A DNA stretch of 64,000 nucleotides from an archaeon. Its GTDB lineage: Archaea; Nanobdellota; Nanobdellia; Woesearchaeales; GW2011-AR9. The position numbers and the translations under genes were made by a program. The notes beneath the pieces are model-generated. The model saw only the letters and a program-made list of their open reading frames with translations, was not told the DNA's origin and did not search any database. Positions 22,075 to 63,297 of this stretch are shown piece after piece; the stretch's first letter is position 1, and each line of letters begins with the position of its first letter. The stretch covers positions 11,841 through 75,840 of the forward strand of contig JABHQR010000012.1 in assembly GCA_018696395.1 (NCBI GenBank). Reading direction: 5' to 3'.

Positions 22075-22165
22075 GCCTCAGTGGCTTAGCGGTTAGAGCA
22101 TGCGAGAATTCAATTCCATGAAGCTGTTAACCGCAGGGTCGTAGGTTCAATTCCTACCTGAGGCG
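22075..22165 (+). tRNA. tRNA-Asn (anticodon GTT) with an 18-nt intron inside the anticodon stem (~position 30/31; intron 22105..22122)
   Basis: Hand fold: acceptor GCCTCAG/CTGAGGC plus G73, D arm GCTT-AGCGGTTA-GAGC, T arm GTAGG-TTCAATT-CCTAC. The only splice that restores a 5-bp anticodon stem (TGCGG/CCGCA) and a canonical loop gives CTGTTAA. Confidence 0.6.
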
Positions 22166-22953
22166 CTTAGGGGGAATTCAATTCCCCTATCTTTTAATAT
22201 TTTTATTCTTTCATTAACATCTGTTCCAACTGGCAAACTGCCTGTTTCTTTCCATATCTCATAACGGGTTAAGGTATTGTAATTTGAAAATCCAATATCT
22301 TTCATCCATTGATTTAGTTTTTTCTTTCCATTAATTTCAACAATATAAGCAATTATTTTTGTTTTTTTTCTTTCCCTTTCTAATGTTGTTGAGTAAAAAT
22401 AAAAACCAAGTTCTTTTAATAATTCCTTAACTGATTCATGTAATGTTTTGCTGTATGTCCAGAAATTAATTACTGGTTTTCTACCTTGATTTTTGAAAAC
22501 TAAACTGAAATCTGTATCTGCTAATCCTCTCAAGAAACTTTGTTTTGTTATTTTATTGGAATTTTTAATTATATCTGGGACCTTAATCTTAATCTTTGGG
22601 CTAAATGGAATTTCACAACATTTATTTAAAAATAAAACAATTGCCTTTGATCTAAAAGAAATCATAACTGTTTTGTTACCCTTTCTAACATTAACCTCTT
22701 TATTAAATAATTGTTTAATTAATGATTTTAAGAATTCTTCATAGAATTTCCTTTCATTAACTTCATGGCCATTATAATCTACTCTATAATCTATCTTGTT
22801 TTTTCTTCTTTCAATTTTCATATAACCATCCCCTATATGAAAACCTAAAAAATAAGCTAATTCTGGTGTGATAATTTCGGGAACTTTAATTCCTAATCTA
22901 ATGTCATTTTTACTAAATTCTACATGTGATAAATCAAATTTCACACATTTCAT
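22147..22953 (-). CDS. free-standing double-motif LAGLIDADG homing endonuclease
   Basis: Motif 1 ELAYFLGFHIGDGYM and motif 2 FLRGLADTDFSL. 268 aa. Its last 19 nt, including the stop, overlap the tRNA-Asn T arm on the opposite strand. Confidence 0.75.
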   Translation of the reverse strand: MKCVKFDLSHVEFSKNDIRLGIKVPEIITPELAYFLGFHIGDGYMKIERRKNKIDYRVDYNGHEVNERKFYEEFLKSLIKQLFNKEVNVRKGNKTVMISFRSKAIVLFLNKCCEIPFSPKIKIKVPDIIKNSNKITKQSFLRGLADTDFSLVFKNQGRKPVINFWTYSKTLHESVKELLKELGFYFYSTTLERERKKTKIIAYIVEINGKKKLNQWMKDIGFSNYNTLTRYEIWKETGSLPVGTDVNERIKILKDRGIEFPLSASGRN

Positions 22954-43911: not shown

Positions 43912-43912
<1 letters not shown>

Positions 43913-44337
43913 TACTTCTTTTTAGAAATTTTCTTTTTAACTGACTTTTTCTTAACTACTTTTTTCTTGGCAGGAGTTTTCTTTGTAGTTTGTTTCTTAG
44001 TTGGCTTGGAAGATGTACTTTTTTTCTTTACACTACTTTTCTTTACTTCCTTCTTTTCAACTTCCTTTTTTACTATGTCTTTTCTAGCAGAAATGACTCT
44101 TGATTTTTCTTGATTTTTCTCTTCTTTATTCTTTTTTTCTCTTTTAAGGATTAAGTAGATTATTGGTAAGATACCTGCGGTGTTTAATATCAACAATAAT
44201 AAGAACCAAACAAATTCTTTTCTGTTAGCTGATTTCCATAAAGCTAAACCTTTCCAAAATATGCTCCAAAATATTAAAATCACTAATACCAGATTAAAAG
44301 CAAACTGGTTTTGATAAATTGTGTATAAATATGACAT
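43912..44337 (-). CDS. small membrane protein (2 TM) with long Lys-rich C-terminal tail
   Basis: Two hydrophobic helices, then a ~70-residue tail that is about half Lys (KKSSVKKKSTSSKPTKKQTTKKTPAKKK...). Confidence 0.5.
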
Positions 44338-44500: not shown

Positions 44501-46603
44501 TTGATGGGATGGAAAGAGTTATGGACATATTTAATAACAGATCCAAATAAAGTAAAATCTAAATCTTCTTGCAATAAGAAATCTAAACTATTATCTCTCA
44601 ACTTAACTAAAAAAACTTCTGAAAAAAAATTCAACTTATCGGATTCAACTTCAAAAAGGAAATTAGGAACTGGCGTTCTTTTATTTATATTAATTAATTC
44701 TATATTAGGTAGTTCGTTATTTTACTTGCCAAGTTTAGGTGTGAAAAGTTTTGGAGCGGCAAGTGTTATTTCTTGGTTACTTATTTTCATGGTTGCAGGT
44801 TTTATTATGTTATACATTAGTGAACTGTTAGTTCTTTTTCCATCATCAGGAGGAACTTATTTTTATTGTAAAAAAGCGTATGGGCGATTTATTTCTTTTA
44901 TGGCTGGTTGGATGATCTGGTTGGCAGGAAATATTGGGATGGCATTAAACATTGTAGCTGCAGCAGAATATTTTATTCCTGAAACTGGCAGTGGTGCATT
45001 TGCGTTACGTATCGCTTTTAGTTTAGTTTGGATTATAGCATTAAATTATATGGCTTTTAGGGGTATAGATGCAGGCGTTACTATGTTAGTAGCGTTTGGG
45101 ATATTTTCTATTGTAGTTGTCTCACTTTTGATAATTCCTTCTTTCATTAGTGTTCCTGCTTTACTTGAGGGAAATTTAGTTACTAATTTTGACATTAATA
45201 ATATAACTCCTTTCTTTAGACATTCTGGGGGTTTTGGATTATTGTCCCATTTACTTTTATCTTTACTAATGGTTTCAGAAGCATTTTTTGGGTTTGAAAC
45301 ATTAAGTTATTTATCAAATGAAGCTGAAGATAAAAAGAAATTGCCAAAAATTTTATTTTTATCAATGTTAATTTGTGGTTTAATAATGGGTTTGTATGTG
45401 CTAACTTCTGTGGCAACAGTAAATTATGGTGATTATGTTACTAATGCAAGGCCTTGGGCTGTGCAAGCATTAAATATTTTGGGAGAAACAGGTAAAAGTA
45501 TTATTGTGTTTGGAATGTATCTTACTATCATTGGTGCTGCTGCTGCTTGGCCGATTACTAGTTCTCGGTTAGTACAAGCAATGGCCAAAGATAAATTGTT
45601 TCTGAAACATTTTGCTGCAAAACATCCTAAACACAAATCCCCCTATAAAGCAGTATATTTTCAAACTTTTGCCATAATATTGTTCGCATGGTTAATATTT
45701 AGGGGTTATATGGTGAATTGGAGTGACCCTTACCGGACAATGCACTTAATTTATGTTGTAATAAGTTTAATCTCTTTATCGTTAATACTTTTTACTGTAC
45801 CAATATTACGTAAAAAGTTTGCTAATCTAAAACGAGATTTCAAAGCACCTTTACCTTTACTAGGTCCAATCTTAATAGTATCATTTTTTACATTTTTAAT
45901 CTTTAATTGGGTTTTTATAGAAGGTGCAGTTGCAAAATCAATTATCAATTTAGCATTATCTTTTGTGGTGTTAGGAATCCCTTTATACTTTTTAATAGAA
46001 ATGTTTTATGATCCAAAAGCTATTGTAAGAACTAATGAGTTTCTTTCTTACTTTGTATTGTTAACTGAGAAAATACATTTTCCTTTAAGTATTAGAAATA
46101 AGATTTTGAAAGATTTAGGTGATGTTAAGGGGAAAACTGTGTTAGATTATGGGTGTAGTATTGGTTCATTAACTAAACGTTTAGCAAGAAAGGTTGGTTC
46201 TAACGGGAGGGTTTATGCTACTGACATCTCTTTGCATAATGTTAAGATTACTGATCAAAGAACTAATGAAATCTCTCAAGTTACAGTTCATCATCACCCT
46301 AGTTTGGATAATTTTAGTTTAAAATTATTTCCTAAAGCAGACCTAGTTTTGTCTATTGGAATGATGTCTTATTTACAGAAGCCTCGAAAGATTTTAACTT
46401 CTTTATCAAAACAAGTTAAGAAAAATTCAGAGATTATTTTTGTTGATTATGATAAATTCTTTTATTTTATTCCTAATGTGACTTGGATTGAAGATGATAA
46501 ACAATTGGTTAAATTGTTTAAATTTGCTGGGTTCAAAGTTAAAATTACTAGAAAACAAGGTTTTTTATGGACTTATGTTATTGTTAAAGGGAAAAAGATT
46601 TAA
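44501..46603 (+). CDS. APC-superfamily permease fused to a C-terminal class-I SAM-dependent methyltransferase domain
   Basis: ~12 TM N-terminal region with APC-like GxG and proline patterns. C-terminal 200 aa has MTase motif I VLDYGCSIGSL, post-I acidic YATDIS and motif II DLVLSIGMM. 700 aa. Confidence 0.7.
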   Translation: MMGWKELWTYLITDPNKVKSKSSCNKKSKLLSLNLTKKTSEKKFNLSDSTSKRKLGTGVLLFILINSILGSSLFYLPSLGVKSFGAASVISWLLIFMVAGFIMLYISELLVLFPSSGGTYFYCKKAYGRFISFMAGWMIWLAGNIGMALNIVAAAEYFIPETGSGAFALRIAFSLVWIIALNYMAFRGIDAGVTMLVAFGIFSIVVVSLLIIPSFISVPALLEGNLVTNFDINNITPFFRHSGGFGLLSHLLLSLLMVSEAFFGFETLSYLSNEAEDKKKLPKILFLSMLICGLIMGLYVLTSVATVNYGDYVTNARPWAVQALNILGETGKSIIVFGMYLTIIGAAAAWPITSSRLVQAMAKDKLFLKHFAAKHPKHKSPYKAVYFQTFAIILFAWLIFRGYMVNWSDPYRTMHLIYVVISLISLSLILFTVPILRKKFANLKRDFKAPLPLLGPILIVSFFTFLIFNWVFIEGAVAKSIINLALSFVVLGIPLYFLIEMFYDPKAIVRTNEFLSYFVLLTEKIHFPLSIRNKILKDLGDVKGKTVLDYGCSIGSLTKRLARKVGSNGRVYATDISLHNVKITDQRTNEISQVTVHHHPSLDNFSLKLFPKADLVLSIGMMSYLQKPRKILTSLSKQVKKNSEIIFVDYDKFFYFIPNVTWIEDDKQLVKLFKFAGFKVKITRKQGFLWTYVIVKGKKI

Positions 46604-47455: not shown

Positions 47456-48436
47456 TTATTTTACATGGCTCTTTCTTAACTTAGTTCCACAATTTTTACA
47501 ATATAATGCATCTAAATCATGTTCCTCTAAATGACAGTTTGGACATTTAATTTTTGTTTTTGTAACTTCCATCATTAAGACTTTTATTAACTTACCTAAC
47601 TGCCAAGGTATTAATGCTATCCCTGACAATATGGTTGCTACTGTTAAGAACTTTCCTAGTCCTGAAATTGGCGTAATATCTCCATAACCTACTGTAGTTA
47701 CAGTTACAATAACAAAATAAATCGCTTCCCATATATTACTAAATTGTCCTGGGTTGACACTATTTTCTACAGTCCAGATCAAACCAGATGATATCAAAAT
47801 AATTGTAAATATAGTTAATATTATCCTAATAATGATTAGTTCACTTTCATTTAATTTACCAAATAATGTGTCTTTAGATTTGAAAATTCTTTGGAATCTA
47901 AGTACCCTTAACATCCTAAATAATCTTAAAATTCTAAATACTCTGAAAAATGTCAAATCTGCAAAATGTACAATTATAGGCAAAATTGATGCTAAATCAA
48001 TCAAACTGTATGGGTTAAAGAAATGTTTCATTTTTTTCTTTGCTACCCACATTCTGCCAATATATTCCATTAAAAATATGCTAACTAAAAAAACTTCTGC
48101 ACCTCCAATAATGAAATTAATAGTATCACTGAATTGATAAGTGCTAAGTATGAACAATGCTACTGCTAAAAAATTTAAGAAAAATAATGTCCCTTCAATT
48201 CTTCTTCCATGTAATGATTCATAATTATCAAGGTGTAAATGTAAAAATGATCTTATATCATTAATAATGCTATTTTCAATCTTAGCTTCTTCTTTGATGA
48301 TTTTTGAATCAATAGAATCTTCATTATTTGCTTTACCATAACTGTTTTTAATCTTAGTTGTTAGTTTAATTTTAGATTTAAGTTTAATCGGTTTCTTTTT
48401 GTTTACAGTTTTAATGCTTTTTTTTTTAGTTGCCAA
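47456..48436 (-). CDS. voltage-gated K+ channel (KvAP-like, 6TM) with C-terminal C4 zinc ribbon
   Basis: S4 RVFRILRLFRMLRVLRFQRIFK (Arg every third residue), selectivity filter TVTTVGYGD, C-terminal CPNC...CKNC, Lys-rich N-terminus. Confidence 0.8.
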   Translation of the reverse strand: MATKKKSIKTVNKKKPIKLKSKIKLTTKIKNSYGKANNEDSIDSKIIKEEAKIENSIINDIRSFLHLHLDNYESLHGRRIEGTLFFLNFLAVALFILSTYQFSDTINFIIGGAEVFLVSIFLMEYIGRMWVAKKKMKHFFNPYSLIDLASILPIIVHFADLTFFRVFRILRLFRMLRVLRFQRIFKSKDTLFGKLNESELIIIRIILTIFTIILISSGLIWTVENSVNPGQFSNIWEAIYFVIVTVTTVGYGDITPISGLGKFLTVATILSGIALIPWQLGKLIKVLMMEVTKTKIKCPNCHLEEHDLDALYCKNCGTKLRKSHVK

Positions 48437-48476: not shown

Positions 48477-49100
48477 TTATCTCTTTTTATTTTTATTATG
48501 TTTTTTTATTTTGATTTTAGTAAAAAATCTTGATTTTGTTAAAACTCTTGTTGATCTAGCGCCTAACTTCAAAAATTCTGCTAATCTTCCTGTTCTTGAA
48601 GCAATTGCAACGCCTTTACGTATCTCTAGGCTTTCATGAAGGATCGCTTGACCTACTCCTAAATCTTTTGAAACTGTTAATGCTAACTTTAATCCTTCCA
48701 TGAATTTTAATGCTAGCATAAATGGAAATACTGCTAAAATGTCTAACCAATAATTTTTGAAAAAATATTTTTTTGAATCACATTTTTTTGCTATAAAAAT
48801 TAAATCAATTACAAATATTGAAATTACTAAATAATCCAGAAATAAAATTATATTGTGTACAATGTGATTTTCTATATGAAAAAATATTTCGATAATAATA
48901 ATTAATGTAAGTGCAATCAAAGCGTAGGGAATCAGTTTGGCATTACATTTTTCAATTCTTTCCCAGAATTCATTATATTTAGTTTTAGTTTTTTTATAAT
49001 GGTTGTAATGTTTAGATCTTGTTTTAGATTTTTTAAGTTTAGACTTACTTTTTATCAATTTAACTTTAACTCTGCCTACACTCTTTTTACTTAACACCAT
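48477..49100 (-). CDS. stand-alone voltage-sensor-domain (S1-S4) protein, no pore domain
   Basis: Four TM segments. S2-S3 region (IDLIFIAKK..KKYFFKNYWLDILAVFPF) parallels the neighbouring channel (EYIGRMWVAKKKMKHFFNPYSLIDLASILP). S4-like RTGRLAEFLKLGARSTRVLTKSRFF. The protein ends about 25 residues after S4. Confidence 0.5.
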   Translation of the reverse strand: MVLSKKSVGRVKVKLIKSKSKLKKSKTRSKHYNHYKKTKTKYNEFWERIEKCNAKLIPYALIALTLIIIIEIFFHIENHIVHNIILFLDYLVISIFVIDLIFIAKKCDSKKYFFKNYWLDILAVFPFMLALKFMEGLKLALTVSKDLGVGQAILHESLEIRKGVAIASRTGRLAEFLKLGARSTRVLTKSRFFTKIKIKKHNKNKKR

Positions 49101-49236
49101 CTTTTAACTAATTTAGAATTATTTTTTGATATAAAAATGCTTTGTTTTTATATCTTTTAACATATATGTAAATTAATACGTTCCCATTACTTTTATATAC
49201 CTAAAAAAATTACTTAAATCCTATTAAAGGAGTTAT

Positions 49237-51126
49237 GTGATGGCTGAACTTAAGAAAGTACTTGGTTTTAAGACGATTTTACTTATTACAATTAACTCTA
49301 TTATGGGTACTGGGATATTTTTTCTTCCAGCGGTTGGTGCAGGTAAGTCTGGCCCAGCATCTTTAATTTCTTGGGCAATTTTATCAGTGGTTTCAATTTA
49401 TATTGCAATGTGTTTTGGAGAATTATCTTCAATGTTCCCAAAATCTGGTGGGATTTATGAATTCTGTAAACAAGCTTATGGTAGGTTTTTTTCATTCTTG
49501 ATTGGTTGGATGACAATCATTGCAGGAAATGTTACTATTGCTATGTTGGTGGTAGGTGCAATACAATATTTAATGCCAGTTGGTTCAATTTGGTTAAAGA
49601 TAGGTGCATCGTTAATATTTATATTCGTATTCAATTACATTGCATTTAAAGGGATGCAAACTTCTGCTGTTATGTTAATTGCTTTTTCAATTATAACTTT
49701 ATTTACAGTAATATCTTTAATTATACCTGGTTTGATTAAATTTAATGTGAGTAATTTTACTCCTTTTTTTGTTTTCCCGGTATCTTCCATCGCATTAACA
49801 ATTTTTTTAGTGGCAGAAACTTTTTTTGGTTGGGAAACTGCAACTTTCTTGGCTGAAGAGACTAAAGATGGCCAGAAAGTTATGCCTAAAGCTTTAATTT
49901 ATGGTACCATTATTATCGCAGTAATTTGTTTACTTTCAGTAATCTCTTCTATGAGTGCTATTAATTGGCAAATATTTGGTTCTTCTAGTGCACCTTTAGC
50001 GGATTTAGCGGTGGAACATTTTGGACCACAATCTTCCGGTGTTTACACCATTTTAGTTTATCTTGCAATAATTGGTTCTGTTGCGGGTTGGATTGTTTCA
50101 GCTCCAAGATTATTATTGGCAATGGCTGAAGATAAATTATTTCCTGCCCAATTTGCAAAGATTCATCCTAAGAACGGTACGCCGTATTTAGCAATAATAT
50201 TTCAAACAGTTTTGTCTACAATTTTAGTAATTGTTGGTGCTGGTTCTTATACCACTTTATTGGAACTTCTTTTACCAATAGTTCTTATCATGTATTCTTT
50301 TGTATTAATTAGTGTAGTTGTACTAAGATATAAAAAACCAAATCTTAAAAGATATTACACTGCGCCTTTTGGTAAAGTGGGCCCTATACTTGTTACATTA
50401 TTCATTTTTTTCTTAATAGGGATGTGGTTACATGAATCTCATGGTGCATTTGATCTGTTGAGTATTGCAGTATCATTATTGATTTTGGGGATTCCAGTAT
50501 ATTTCTTGATAGAAATGTATTATGATTCAGAAGCAATTAGGAAAGTTAATGAAAAATTACCTTATCTATTATTATTTTCAGAAAATTTCTTATTTCCTTT
50601 AGATGTTAGAAGAAAAATATTTCTTATGGTTGGAAATTTGAAAGGTAAAAAAGTATTGGAATTTGGTTGTGGTGTTGGAACATTAACAAGAAGGTTAGCA
50701 AACAAAGTTTTACCTGGTGGGAAAATTTATGCATTTGATTTTGCTAAACATAATGTTAACCTTGTTTCTAAAAACATGAAAAAAAATAATCATAATCATG
50801 TTTCTGTTTTTCATCATGAATATTTAGACCATTTTAAAACTAAGAATAAATTTCCTAAATGTGACATTTTAATATCTACTGGTACATTTAGTTATGTTCA
50901 AAACCCTGAAAAAGTAGTTAAACATTTGAGTAATAACTTGAGAAAAGGTGCTCGAATTGTTATAATGGACTATGACAATTTCTTTCATTTAATGCCTAAT
51001 GTAGAATGGATCTCTGATCATAAAAGATTAAATCAAATGTTTACCCAGGCCGGATTTAAAATTGAAATAATTAGAAAAAGAAGTTTATTATGGACACACA
51101 TATTTATTGTTGGTGAAAAAAAATAA
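49237..51126 (+). CDS. APC-superfamily permease fused to a C-terminal class-I SAM-dependent methyltransferase domain (paralog of 44501..46603)
   Basis: Same architecture. MTase motif I VLEFGCGVGTL, post-I YAFDFA. 629 aa. SD AAGGAG upstream. Confidence 0.7.
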   Translation: MMAELKKVLGFKTILLITINSIMGTGIFFLPAVGAGKSGPASLISWAILSVVSIYIAMCFGELSSMFPKSGGIYEFCKQAYGRFFSFLIGWMTIIAGNVTIAMLVVGAIQYLMPVGSIWLKIGASLIFIFVFNYIAFKGMQTSAVMLIAFSIITLFTVISLIIPGLIKFNVSNFTPFFVFPVSSIALTIFLVAETFFGWETATFLAEETKDGQKVMPKALIYGTIIIAVICLLSVISSMSAINWQIFGSSSAPLADLAVEHFGPQSSGVYTILVYLAIIGSVAGWIVSAPRLLLAMAEDKLFPAQFAKIHPKNGTPYLAIIFQTVLSTILVIVGAGSYTTLLELLLPIVLIMYSFVLISVVVLRYKKPNLKRYYTAPFGKVGPILVTLFIFFLIGMWLHESHGAFDLLSIAVSLLILGIPVYFLIEMYYDSEAIRKVNEKLPYLLLFSENFLFPLDVRRKIFLMVGNLKGKKVLEFGCGVGTLTRRLANKVLPGGKIYAFDFAKHNVNLVSKNMKKNNHNHVSVFHHEYLDHFKTKNKFPKCDILISTGTFSYVQNPEKVVKHLSNNLRKGARIVIMDYDNFFHLMPNVEWISDHKRLNQMFTQAGFKIEIIRKRSLLWTHIFIVGEKK

Positions 51127-51187: not shown

Positions 51188-52249
51188 TTACTTTTTTTTA
51201 TTAACTTTCTTTTTCAATGTTTTTTTCTTAACTGATTTTTTCACAATTTTATTTTTAGTTAATCTTTTATTAACCAGTTTTTTCTTAATTACTTTCTTTT
51301 TTGCAGTTACTTTTTTCTTGACTACCTTTTCTTTTTTAGGTTTTTTCTTAGCAACTTGTTTAGTAATTTCTTTTTTCTCTTTCTTAATAGATTTTTTAAC
51401 ATTAGCTTCTAATTCTTTTAAATCTTTGAGTATATCTGAAGCAATGAAACAATATCCTTTCTTATTTTTTAACTGTAAATCACCAAAATATCCATTAATG
51501 TATGCTGCTGCTGCTGCACTTTTGAAAAGATCTTTTGTTTTAGCAAGGAATCCTACTGCTAAACCAGCTAGCACATCTCCAGTACCTGCTTTTGTCATCC
51601 CTTGATTTCCTGTTCTATTAAAGTAAATCTTATTTTTTGAAATGATGATGTCAGTTGCTCCTTTAACTACAATGACATTATCATTTTGTAAAAAATACCT
51701 TAAATTTCCTTGTAAAATGTCTGCTTTTTCTTTAGCATTAGAAATTTTTAGTTTAGGTAATAAAAATTCTTTTCCACTATTAATTAACATTATTTCAAGT
51801 TCTTTTTCATGTGGTGTTATAATTGAATTTTTAAAATCTCTAAATGATGCAGATTTTAATGCATCTGCGTCAATAACTTTTAAACCTTGAAATTTTTTGA
51901 TAAATGTTTGACAAAATTTATCTGAAGCTCTAGTCATACCATTTCCAACTAATACTGCATCAAACCGGTCTGCAAATTTAGCTAGTTCCTTAGCATTTTT
52001 TATATTTAAAGAATTTCCAATAACTTTATGGGTTATCAAATCTAATGATATTTGATTAATTGTCCAAGCAATTTTTTCAGGAGCTGCAACTGTAACTGAA
52101 TCACAACCTGATCTTAAAGCCGCTAAACCAGATAATGCTGGTGCGGTGACATATTCCTCTGATCCGCCTACAATGAGAGCGTAACCATTTTCACCTTTAT
52201 GGGAAGTTTTTCTCCTTTCCATTAATTTTTTAACTTGATTAAGGTTCAT
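51188..52249 (-). CDS. ADP/ATP-dependent NAD(P)H-hydrate dehydratase (YjeF C-terminal/carbohydrate-kinase-like domain) with Lys-rich C-terminal tail
   Basis: GENGYALIVGGS...AVLVGNGM...KAGTGDVLAGLAVGFLA, all YjeF_C hallmarks. The C-terminal ~70 aa are K-rich. Confidence 0.75.
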   Translation of the reverse strand: MNLNQVKKLMERRKTSHKGENGYALIVGGSEEYVTAPALSGLAALRSGCDSVTVAAPEKIAWTINQISLDLITHKVIGNSLNIKNAKELAKFADRFDAVLVGNGMTRASDKFCQTFIKKFQGLKVIDADALKSASFRDFKNSIITPHEKELEIMLINSGKEFLLPKLKISNAKEKADILQGNLRYFLQNDNVIVVKGATDIIISKNKIYFNRTGNQGMTKAGTGDVLAGLAVGFLAKTKDLFKSAAAAAYINGYFGDLQLKNKKGYCFIASDILKDLKELEANVKKSIKKEKKEITKQVAKKKPKKEKVVKKKVTAKKKVIKKKLVNKRLTKNKIVKKSVKKKTLKKKVNKKK

Positions 52250-63128: not shown

Positions 63129-63239
63129 TGCTCAGATCGCATAATTTGGTATTGCGCTGGACTGCTATATCTTTCATAAGCAATCTTTGCAGCCATCCAG
63201 TTTCCTTTTGGATATCTGGGTTCAAATCCCAGTCTGAGC
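63129..63239 (+). tRNA. tRNA-Ser (anticodon GCT), class II, with a 27-nt canonical 37/38 intron (~63166..63192)
   Basis: Hand fold: acceptor GCTCAGA/TCTGAGC plus G, anticodon stem CTGGA/TCCAG with loop CTGCTA|A, 15-nt variable arm, T arm CTGGG-TTCAAAT-CCCAG. Confidence 0.6.
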
Positions 63240-63297
63240 GTATTACCTTTTTTTCTTTACCCAAAACTTAATATACATCGATTCTCTTCTTTTAGTT

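Follow-up and report, generated by a model that had tools for sequence, protein, structure and literature searches.

What might a voltage sensor do when nothing is attached to it? The question is raised by a 207-amino-acid (aa) open reading frame (ORF) in a 64,000-nucleotide (nt) stretch of contig JABHQR010000012.1 from a Woesearchaeales archaeon, the whole of which is called the window here (G+C ~29%). Voltage sensors are usually seen as a module joined to pores or to a phosphatase, or alone, as in Hv1, and to our knowledge the stand-alone state is documented only in eukaryotes. The ORF has an ATG start and occupies 48477 to 49100 of the minus strand (coordinates from the ORF list, as in an earlier sequence-only reading of this DNA), and the identical deposited protein, on a 271-kb contig, is named 'hypothetical protein [archaeon]'. 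A profile scan of all window ORFs found exactly one sensor-only gene and one gene for a voltage-gated K+ channel (Kv). The sequence-only reading had described the product as a voltage-sensor-type protein with neither pore nor enzyme, and this description holds for a conserved family of same-length proteins. Judged by its sequence, the ORF is a real gene of that stand-alone family and not a fragment. The gene and the segments of its product are listed below; column conservation figures here and throughout refer to an alignment of 240 relatives, and pLDDT is the predicted local distance difference test.

48477 to 49100, minus strand: stand-alone voltage-sensor gene, stop codon at 48477-48479
48978 to 49100, minus strand: Lys-rich N-terminal extension, residues 1-41, net charge about +17
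48936 to 48974, minus strand: amphipathic helix before S1, residues 43-55, consensus FWEKVE..N.K, with E50 conserved in 91%
48879 to 48935, minus strand: S1, residues 56-74, hydropathy peak 2.57, pLDDT 85-90
48789 to 48851, minus strand: S2, residues 84-104, with the outer D89 and the charge-transfer-centre pair F96-x-x-D99
48753 to 48788, minus strand: basic S2-S3 loop AKKCDSKKYFFK, residues 105-116, cytoplasmic, aligning with VAKKKMKHFFNPY of the Kv channel
48693 to 48752, minus strand: S3, residues 117-136, with D120 and the kink proline P126
48597 to 48692, minus strand: long S3-S4 linker, residues 137-168, a conserved motif followed by a length-variable stretch
48525 to 48596, minus strand: S4 candidate, residues 169-192, with R169, R172, E175, K178, R182, R185, K189 and R191 and hydrophobic residues between them
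48480 to 48524, minus strand: short Lys-rich tail, residues 193-207, cytoplasmic, ending the protein

The first three membrane helices carry the residues expected of a voltage sensor. S1 is hydrophobic throughout as far as an outer glutamate, E71, in a column that is 95% Glu/Asp and that corresponds in the alignment to the outer Glu of S1 in NavPaS domain III. In S2, the D89 column is acidic in 99% of relatives, F96 is Phe in 237 of the 240 and the D99 column is acidic in 100%; the spacing from D89 to F96 to D99 is 7 + 3, which we take to match E283/F290/E293 of Shaker. The D120 column of S3 is likewise acidic in 100%, and P126 is Pro in 240/240 relatives. F96, D99 and D120 thus supply the features of a gating-charge transfer centre (an S2 aromatic, an acid three residues on and an S3 Asp), and E71 with D89 forms the outer negative cluster on S1 and S2. 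Ahead of these helices, residues 43-55 are helical in both AlphaFold models, and residues 1-41 would be cytoplasmic by the positive-inside rule. Most relatives (206/240) begin at the position of residue 42; the N-terminal extension is common to the proteins P0002, P0003, P0010, P0038 and P0058.

Similarity of this region to channel sensors was detected by several profile methods. Using hhalign with profiles of 111 sensor relatives and of 25 relatives of the neighbouring Kv channel (for which 643 homologues were found), residues 42-132 aligned with Kv residues 65-159 over 91 columns (E 1.1e-5, probability 82%), pairing F96 with F121, D99 with E124, D120 with D147 and P126 with P153. The block match between the two proteins that had been read by eye (..AKK..KK.FF.N.[YW].LDIL/IDLA..P) is therefore above chance. 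The Pfam Ion_trans model matched sensor residues 65-143 (profile positions 16-84) with E 5.4e-5 and 23 bits, below its 25-bit curated cut-off, and matched 73 of the 111 close relatives collected at E<0.01. With phmmer against PDB sequences, residues 55-134 aligned with S1-S3 of NavPaS domain III (E 3.4e-4). The family profile against all PDB sequences gave weak KvAP matches only (E 0.56 to 2.8); whether ranked by structure or by profile, the isolated KvAP sensor came first. Between the sensor and its Kv neighbour, plain BLASTP found nothing significant, the similarity needing profile methods. On these profile comparisons we regard S1-S3 as homologous to channel voltage sensors.

Relatives of the protein are numerous. 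When 1.84 billion cluster representatives were searched exhaustively with the family profile, 561 were returned at E<1e-3, 279 at E<1e-10 and 129 at E<1e-30. The best 150 are all 87-351 aa long, so the short architecture is a property of the family, in which lengths run from 150 to 250 aa with about 165 aa typical. As claimed beforehand, the protein ends soon after the basic helix, 18 residues past it, and does so family-wide; its tail has no Pfam or NCBIfam domain, no pore and no enzyme. A scan with one genome per species found a relative encoded in 189 genomes, and loci were examined for the relatives of 80 of these; the context work covered ~87 loci (numbered with L below), 84 of which were scanned for the permease genes described later. 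All 80 loci come from archaeal metagenome-assembled genomes, mostly labelled DPANN (Woesearchaeota, Nanoarchaeota/Nanoarchaeia, Nanohaloarchaea, 'ainarchaeum' or plain 'archaeon'). Another ~23 carry the label 'uncultured Methanosarcinales' and have a G+C of 0.31-0.46, like that of the other loci; at least one of them, L056 (the L004 contig), has the synteny of the window, and we suspect that the label is a placeholder. In the source records the relatives are all named 'hypothetical protein' except for one automatic 'voltage-gated potassium channel', and no NCBIfam model covers the family. We also noted head-to-tail duplicated sensor-only genes (L011:5555-6690, L028:6031-7123, L035:1512-2604 and L052:5995-7007), hinting at hetero-oligomers or subfunctionalisation of the tandem paralogues.

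Three loci encode proteins in which a related sensor is joined to an APC permease with a methyltransferase domain:

L008:2060-4384, minus strand: sensor-APC permease-methyltransferase fusion
L014:840-3170, minus strand: sensor-APC permease-methyltransferase fusion
L016:1853-4168, plus strand: sensor-APC permease-methyltransferase fusion

In these proteins of 771-776 aa, the first ~135 residues are the sensor, which is joined to the normal N-terminus of the permease, and the methyltransferase-like domain is C-terminal. The fused sensor keeps the canonical countercharges (E71, D89, F96, D99 and D120), has a short S3-S4 loop and carries a textbook S4 with an Arg at every third position, ~13 Arg in all. 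Fused sensors matched the hidden Markov model (HMM) of the stand-alone family at 6e-13 to 1.5e-17, and full-length Kv channels fell below the 1e-5 reporting cut-off of the same search. A search for further sensor-APC fusions yielded 18 clusters; because these are mostly contig-end fragments, the spread of the fusions is poorly known. P0372, P0373, P0380, P0382 and P0386 are fragments of such fusion proteins.

The remaining element of a voltage sensor is its fourth helix. The basic ladder at the C-terminus is conserved among the 240 relatives, with Lys or Arg making up 77% of column 169, 91% of 172, 83% of 175, 93% of 178, 95% of 182, 97% of 185 and 89% of 189, and none of these columns is predominantly acidic. 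The stand-alone family aligned with the APC-fused sensors end to end over 131 columns, ladder included (E 6e-28), and the start of the fused-sensor S4 is in register with R165/R168/R171 of the Kv channel (E 1.4e-7). The full-length hhalign alignment to the Kv profile ends before S4. When the C-terminal segment alone was compared with that profile, its sole local match was S4, pairing positions 175/178/182/185/189 with Kv R165/R168/R171/R174/R177; the match is weak (E 0.0015 in a single comparison, probability 17%). The charge distribution bears on the topology as well. Mean charges in the family are +1.9 for the N-terminus (about +17 in the window), -1.2 for the S1-S2 loop, +3.7 for the S2-S3 loop, about -0.7 for residues 137-171 and +5.9 for the tail. 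The linker at residues 137-168 is about neutral or slightly acidic, fitting a location outside; its pLDDT is <60. Because of this distribution, the number of membrane crossings should be even, with the last one lying between residue 137 and the tail; a topology with three transmembrane (TM) helices was rejected, as it would leave a charge of +12 outside. Further TM segments follow the basic tail in two relatives, P0130 (351 aa) and P0134 (241 aa), which we counted in favour of the ladder being S4. P0130 also has a Cys/Asn-rich domain, probably extracellular, and these extensions indicate that the sensor module occasionally gains additions other than pores.

Several observations count against placing the ladder in the membrane. 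Four TM helices had been expected, and only the first three stand out as clear hydropathy peaks (S1 near residue 65, S2 near 94 and S3 near 128); residues 172-192 have a mean Kyte-Doolittle hydropathy of -0.2 versus +0.43 for the Kv S4. At 3-3-3-4-3-4 the ladder is spaced less regularly than the Kv S4, and at position 175 both the window copy and its closest relative, P0002, have Glu. The ladder matches the second half of a 45-residue Arg-rich stretch in the fused sensors and, in a gapless extension of the fused-sensor alignment, falls C-terminal of the segment aligned with Kv R1-R3. In two AlphaFold2 runs, one with the full length and one with residues 42-196 and the fused relatives added to the alignment, S1-S3 were confident, pLDDT was 45-69 after residue 141 and the C-terminal third was not placed, the ladder region being helical at low confidence (pLDDT 45-65). 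Foldseek searches of the PDB found nothing significant for either model (best E 1.2 and 2.1). Of the S4-like basic helix claimed by the sequence-only reading, then, the conserved ladder stands, while E175, the irregular spacing and the marginal Kv match detract from it.

These data can be read in two ways. In the first, which we consider probable, the ladder would form the fourth TM helix and move through the F96/D99/D120 centre with voltage; as an assignment from sequence, the identity of the ladder with S4 is only moderately supported. In the other topology, which we regard as distinctly less probable, residues 148-168 would cross the membrane and the ladder would lie on the cytoplasmic face. 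The linker holds the motif GQAILHESLE (residues 150-159, nt 48624-48653), of family form GQxxLHExLE, in which Q151 is conserved in 95% of relatives, H155 in 97%, E156 in 78% and E159 in 73%, and the distance from P126 to R172 varies from 38 to 87 residues across relatives. A protein of the second kind would consist of sensor-derived S1-S3 without a classical S4, its polar helix (Q151, H155, E156, E159 and K162) completing an outer crevice in which four acids and a His bind a cation, with the ladder amphipathic and cytoplasmic; the whole would be a cation-binding or ligand-sensing module, an explanation that we consider unlikely. It fits the segment order of the fused sensors, in which the first half of the 45-residue Arg-rich stretch must be the membrane S4 and the second half of that stretch (RAPRFL motif) aligns with the ladder. 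The i, i+3, i+7, i+10, i+14 spacing sets the charges on one face of an alpha-helix, residues 148-168 have a mean hydropathy of +0.48 versus -0.2 for the ladder, the charged inserts of some relatives would be cytoplasmic, the charge distribution is accommodated equally well, and AlphaFold leaves the ladder unplaced. With the ladder inside, however, no basic residue would visit the outer crevice of the near-invariant E71 and D89, and four buried carboxylates without counter-charges would be costly. Moreover, the fused relatives retain E71, D89, F96, D99 and D120 and lack the Q/H/E motif (GQxxLHExLE was found neither in the fused-sensor relatives nor in Kv channels), the sole Kv profile match of the C-terminal segment is S4, and long, variable S3-S4 linkers are normal in sensors. 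We prefer the classical S4 topology because the near-invariant E71 and D89 make sense only if basic residues reach the outer crevice.

The genes around the sensor bear on what a sensor of this kind might act on. In the window, the features concerned are the following:

47456 to 48436, minus strand: 6-TM voltage-gated K+ channel, 326 aa, with its own S1-S4, a TVGYGD filter and a C-terminal zinc ribbon
49101 to 49236, no strand: divergent intergenic region of 136 nt between the sensor gene and the APC-permease/methyltransferase gene
49237 to 51126, plus strand: APC amino-acid permease with a C-terminal S-adenosylmethionine (SAM)-methyltransferase domain (Pfam), 629 aa, divergent from the sensor gene
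44501 to 46603, plus strand: second APC-permease/methyltransferase paralogue (Pfam), 700 aa, convergent

The sensor gene had been placed downstream of the Kv gene; the order is the reverse. In the coding orientation the sensor gene leads, and the co-directional Kv gene (48436 to 47456) starts 40 nt downstream, followed by a 258-aa ORF. No oligo-T run was seen when the 40-nt spacer was read, and a putative A/T-rich TATA-like element, TTTTTATAT, recognised by reading alone, lies ~35 nt upstream of the sensor ATG. The Kv channel matches Pfam Ion_trans (3e-18) and Ion_trans_2 (1.8e-16); F121, E124, D147, P153 and the S4 arginines R165/168/171/174/177 are invariant in its family. Its residues 296-321 form a zinc ribbon (CPNC...H...CKNC) whose four Cys and one His do not vary among the aligned relatives having the region, and a cytoplasmic zinc ribbon is an uncommon addition to a Kv channel. 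The fusion of an APC-superfamily permease to a C-terminal SAM-dependent methyltransferase is likewise an unusual architecture, conserved in related DPANN genomes.

The permeases recur beside the sensor in other genomes and are its conserved neighbours within the clade of the window. The locus of the closest relative (L086, sensor 79% identical) is laid out as the window is, with a divergent permease 90% identical to that of the window and a Kv N-terminus 48 nt downstream. In L088 the two permease paralogues directly enclose the sensor gene, and there is no Kv gene; in L087 and L004 the sensor gene is convergent with the second permease, which is followed by a DUF5652 gene as it is in the window, the Kv gene and the 258-aa ORF being absent there. 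An orthologue of the second permease is the immediate downstream neighbour of the sensor in L004, L043, L087 and L088. Overall, 14 of the 84 loci scanned have an APC-methyltransferase gene no more than 3 kb from the sensor gene; the two genes are direct neighbours in nine distinct loci of the 84 (<=220 nt apart) and also in L086, L087 and L088. The fused-sensor genes themselves are found at the divergent (or upstream) position that is held in the window by the permease at 49237-51126.

In 10 loci belonging to two clades, the sensor gene directly adjoins a K+ channel gene of one of two types. In the second clade, the neighbour is not a canonical Kv gene:

L061:4864-5901, minus strand: K+-channel-like gene
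L065:4864-6000, minus strand: K+-channel-like gene
L076:4958-5863, minus strand: K+-channel-like gene
L084:1705-2538, minus strand: K+-channel-like gene
L068:1-761, minus strand: K+-channel-like gene
L079:3715-4704, minus strand: K+-channel-like gene

The gene, encoding a 6-TM protein, is divergent from the sensor gene and directly upstream of it in five of these loci, at 66-84 nt in L061, L076 and L084 and with ORF calls that overlap in L065 and L068; in L079 it lies 1.2 kb upstream. Its products are 277-378 aa long, with a TVGYGD, TIGYGE or STGYGE filter and an uncharged TM4, and match only the pore model Ion_trans_2 in Pfam. A sensor-less channel adjoining a channel-less sensor is suggestive. 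Across both transporter classes, the adjacency cases span three orientations.

Taking protein and context together, we tentatively favour a stand-alone voltage sensor that would itself be sealed and would pass its signal to a separately encoded membrane transport protein. In this explanation, read from the sequence, the protein would be arranged as S0-S1-S2-S3, a long linker and S4, with both ends cytoplasmic and nothing attached. S1-S3 keep, under purifying selection, the complete apparatus that stabilises moving S4 charges, namely the outer acids E71 and D89, the plug F96 and the inner acids D99 and D120, and the ladder at 169-189 holds the only conserved basic residues available to use them. 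A change in membrane potential would move the ladder through the F96/D99/D120 centre, and the signal might be relayed via the lipid-facing side, the GQxxLHExLE motif or the basic tail. Because the plug is intact, S1 has no polar residue mid-membrane and the ladder is nearly complete here and full in most relatives, the domain is most likely non-conducting and in need of a partner. Here the leading candidate would be the flanking APC-permease/methyltransferase pair, on account of the fusion proteins and the conserved flanking position; the co-directional Kv channel would come second, as would, elsewhere, the sensor-less K+ channels. That the free sensor docks onto voltage-blind transporters (APC permeases, or K+ channels with an uncharged TM4) and so makes them voltage dependent is a more specific proposal and a doubtful one.

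The genomic context also holds points that speak against a transporter partner. In the largest clade, ~60% of loci, no transporter lies beside the sensor gene, whose neighbours there are a divergent gene for a 136-aa double zinc-ribbon protein (29 loci) and a convergent gene for the CCA-adding enzyme (31 loci). The adjacency cases cluster on the sensor tree and are not independent events, so that conserved synteny alone could explain them. Finally, the stand-alone gene is retained in the genomes that have a fusion, which makes the fused sensor a paralogue and not a replacement. As a separate observation, the 136-aa zinc-ribbon gene (L039:5496-5906, minus strand, with homologues in 29 loci) is the commonest neighbour of the sensor, ~130 nt upstream and divergent; its product has four CxxC pairs, or two zinc ribbons, and no firm Pfam family.

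A sensor with no pore and no enzyme might instead conduct by itself, as a voltage-gated proton or small-cation channel of the Hv1 kind or through a gating-pore (omega) current. Self-conduction is the simplest autonomous output for such a protein, an isolated Shaker sensor is said to conduct cations, and the K+ channel gene neighbours would fit a joint role in setting the membrane potential. E175 stands in place of a ladder Arg in the window copy and in P0002. The linker residues Q151, H155, E156 and E159 could form an outer cation- or Zn-binding site, a comparison drawn with the outer sites of Hv1 and TMEM266. Gating-pore currents arise in channels when an S4 Arg is lost (PMC13095418). Against all this, the acidic S1 selectivity residue of a proton conductor is absent: the position seven residues before E71 is an invariant Leu, L64, and the next, 65, is Leu in 63% of relatives and Thr in the window. 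The position of L64 is that of NavAb N25 and human Hv1 D112. There is no S4 Trp (none occurs in residues 137-207 or in the family consensus), and the tail is far too short for the coiled coil of Hv1. At E<=10, searching all PDB sequences with the single sequence and with the profile returned only NavPaS and KvAP, with no match to Hv1 or Ci-VSP, and the presence of F96 in 237/240 relatives and of Lys or Arg at 175 in 83% is the pattern of a sealed sensor. The proton-conducting sensor that had been suggested is thus not supported at the residues that should define it, and self-conduction of any kind seems improbable to us.

A modulatory subunit of the adjacent channel had also been suggested. 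A canonical Kv gene does follow the sensor co-directionally, with a gap of 0-48 nt, in the window and in L016, L017, L020 and L086; the sensors of these loci are only 43-80% identical, so that the tandem among such divergent sensors suggests co-transcription kept over time, and the spacer in the window lacks a terminator-like T-run. This layout, however, occurs in only ~5/87 loci, the syntenic L004, L087 and L088 have no Kv gene at that place, and most of the family has no channel nearby. The Kv channel, moreover, already possesses a complete sensor, with five arginines in its S4 that are invariant, on which ground we also rejected a split Kv gene. A subunit dedicated to this channel only is, in our judgement, very unlikely. 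Nor can the ORF reasonably be a truncated Kv remnant, pseudogene or ORF-calling artefact, for although it adjoins a Kv gene and plain BLASTP shows similarity to nothing obvious, it has hundreds of relatives of the same length and stop position, invariant functional residues, family-specific motifs not in Kv channels, a sequence that resembles its own family and the fused sensors more than any Kv sensor, and no pore remnant 3´ of its stop codon; family conservation rejects the fragment outright.

Compared with known systems, the protein is by sequence nearest to prokaryotic Kv sensors (KvAP), by architecture to Hv1 and TMEM266, and by proposed logic to SLC9C1. With the Kv and KvAP sensors it shares S1-S3, the outer acids, the S2 F-x-x-acid centre, the S3 Asp and Pro and a basic ladder that looks like S4. 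Unlike them, it has no S4-S5 linker or pore, carries an S3-S4 linker of at least 35 residues with GQxxLHExLE, spaces its ladder 3-3-3-4-3-4 and belongs to a separate, self-contained gene family; membership among 6-TM channels was rejected, there being no Ion_trans_2 match and no filter motif, and the protein ending 18 residues after K189. Like Hv1 it is a sensor domain alone with both termini inside, and its conserved outer His and Glu residues recall the Zn2+ site of Hv1, though only by resemblance. Hv1 is eukaryotic, whereas this family is archaeal, and it was not assigned to Hv1, having no mid-S1 Asp (A60-I70 is purely hydrophobic), no RxWRxxR, no coiled-coil tail and no detectable similarity in sequence. 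Ci-VSP also uses a sensor domain without a pore; the absence of a PTEN-like or other cytoplasmic domain after S4 rejects the voltage-sensing phosphatases. The best functional analogy for the preferred explanation is TMEM266/HVRP1, reportedly a stand-alone sensor in which gating charge moves; it is not known to conduct, nor is its effector known. That protein differs in being eukaryotic and in having a long cytoplasmic C-terminus, and the likeness is one of described properties.

Precedents for the coupling proposed here exist among transporters and channels. SLC9C1 is a transporter gated by a voltage sensor and has been called the only known sensor-regulated transporter (PMC10620092). Its logic, a sensor coupled to a secondary transporter, is that of the L008, L014 and L016 fusions and of the coupling in trans that we propose. 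The sensor of SLC9C1 lies on the C-terminal side of a CPA-type exchanger, accompanied by a cyclic-nucleotide-binding domain, whereas in the archaeal case it is separate or N-terminal and the transporter is of the APC/LeuT type with a methyltransferase domain. Proteins consisting only of a voltage-sensor domain and proteins consisting only of a pore can co-assemble in trans (bioRxiv 10.64898/2026.08.07.743441). According to a 2023 review, every prokaryotic voltage-sensing domain known so far is accompanied by a pore domain (PMC10377628), and no Hv channels occur in bacteria or archaea according to the same review and one of 2024 (PMC13095418). These reviews agree with the sequence-only reading that pore-less prokaryotic sensors are uncharacterised, and our full-text searches of the literature, whose coverage is incomplete, found no description of a prokaryotic stand-alone sensor or a sensor-transporter fusion. 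Prokaryotic stand-alone voltage sensors thus seem not to have been described before.

A few further features of the window were noted. Long Lys-rich tails are frequent in its proteins, at 43912-44337 (minus strand), 51188-52249 (minus strand), 48978-49100 (minus strand) and 47456-48436 (minus strand); examples are a DUF5652 protein and an NAD(P)HX dehydratase extended C-terminally by ~70 residues, and the sensor and the Kv channel have such stretches at their N-termini. This looks like a compositional habit of the whole lineage. Rfam detected three tRNAs in the window, among them a 111-nt one at 63130-63240 (plus strand) that ARAGORN missed and a 92-nt tRNA-Glu at 22075-22166 (plus strand); both of these probably contain introns, typical of archaea. 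Between 40001 and 42000 the G+C falls to 23%, compared with ~29% elsewhere, and the GC and AT skews are strongly negative.

If the free sensor does dock onto voltage-blind transporters and make them voltage dependent, it would be the first prokaryotic stand-alone sensor known and a living example of the detachable module presumed to have given rise to voltage-gated channels; together with its fused forms, it would provide a second kind of voltage-gated secondary transporter after SLC9C1. The family and the permease fusions would show the sensor module circulating independently in prokaryotes and coupled to transporters other than channels, and the origin and modularity of voltage sensing would become directly testable. 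The proteins would also serve structural and biophysical studies as very small sensors, and might be of use in voltage indicators. For the DPANN archaea, whose membrane energetics are poorly understood, they would point to voltage-controlled uptake of nutrients.

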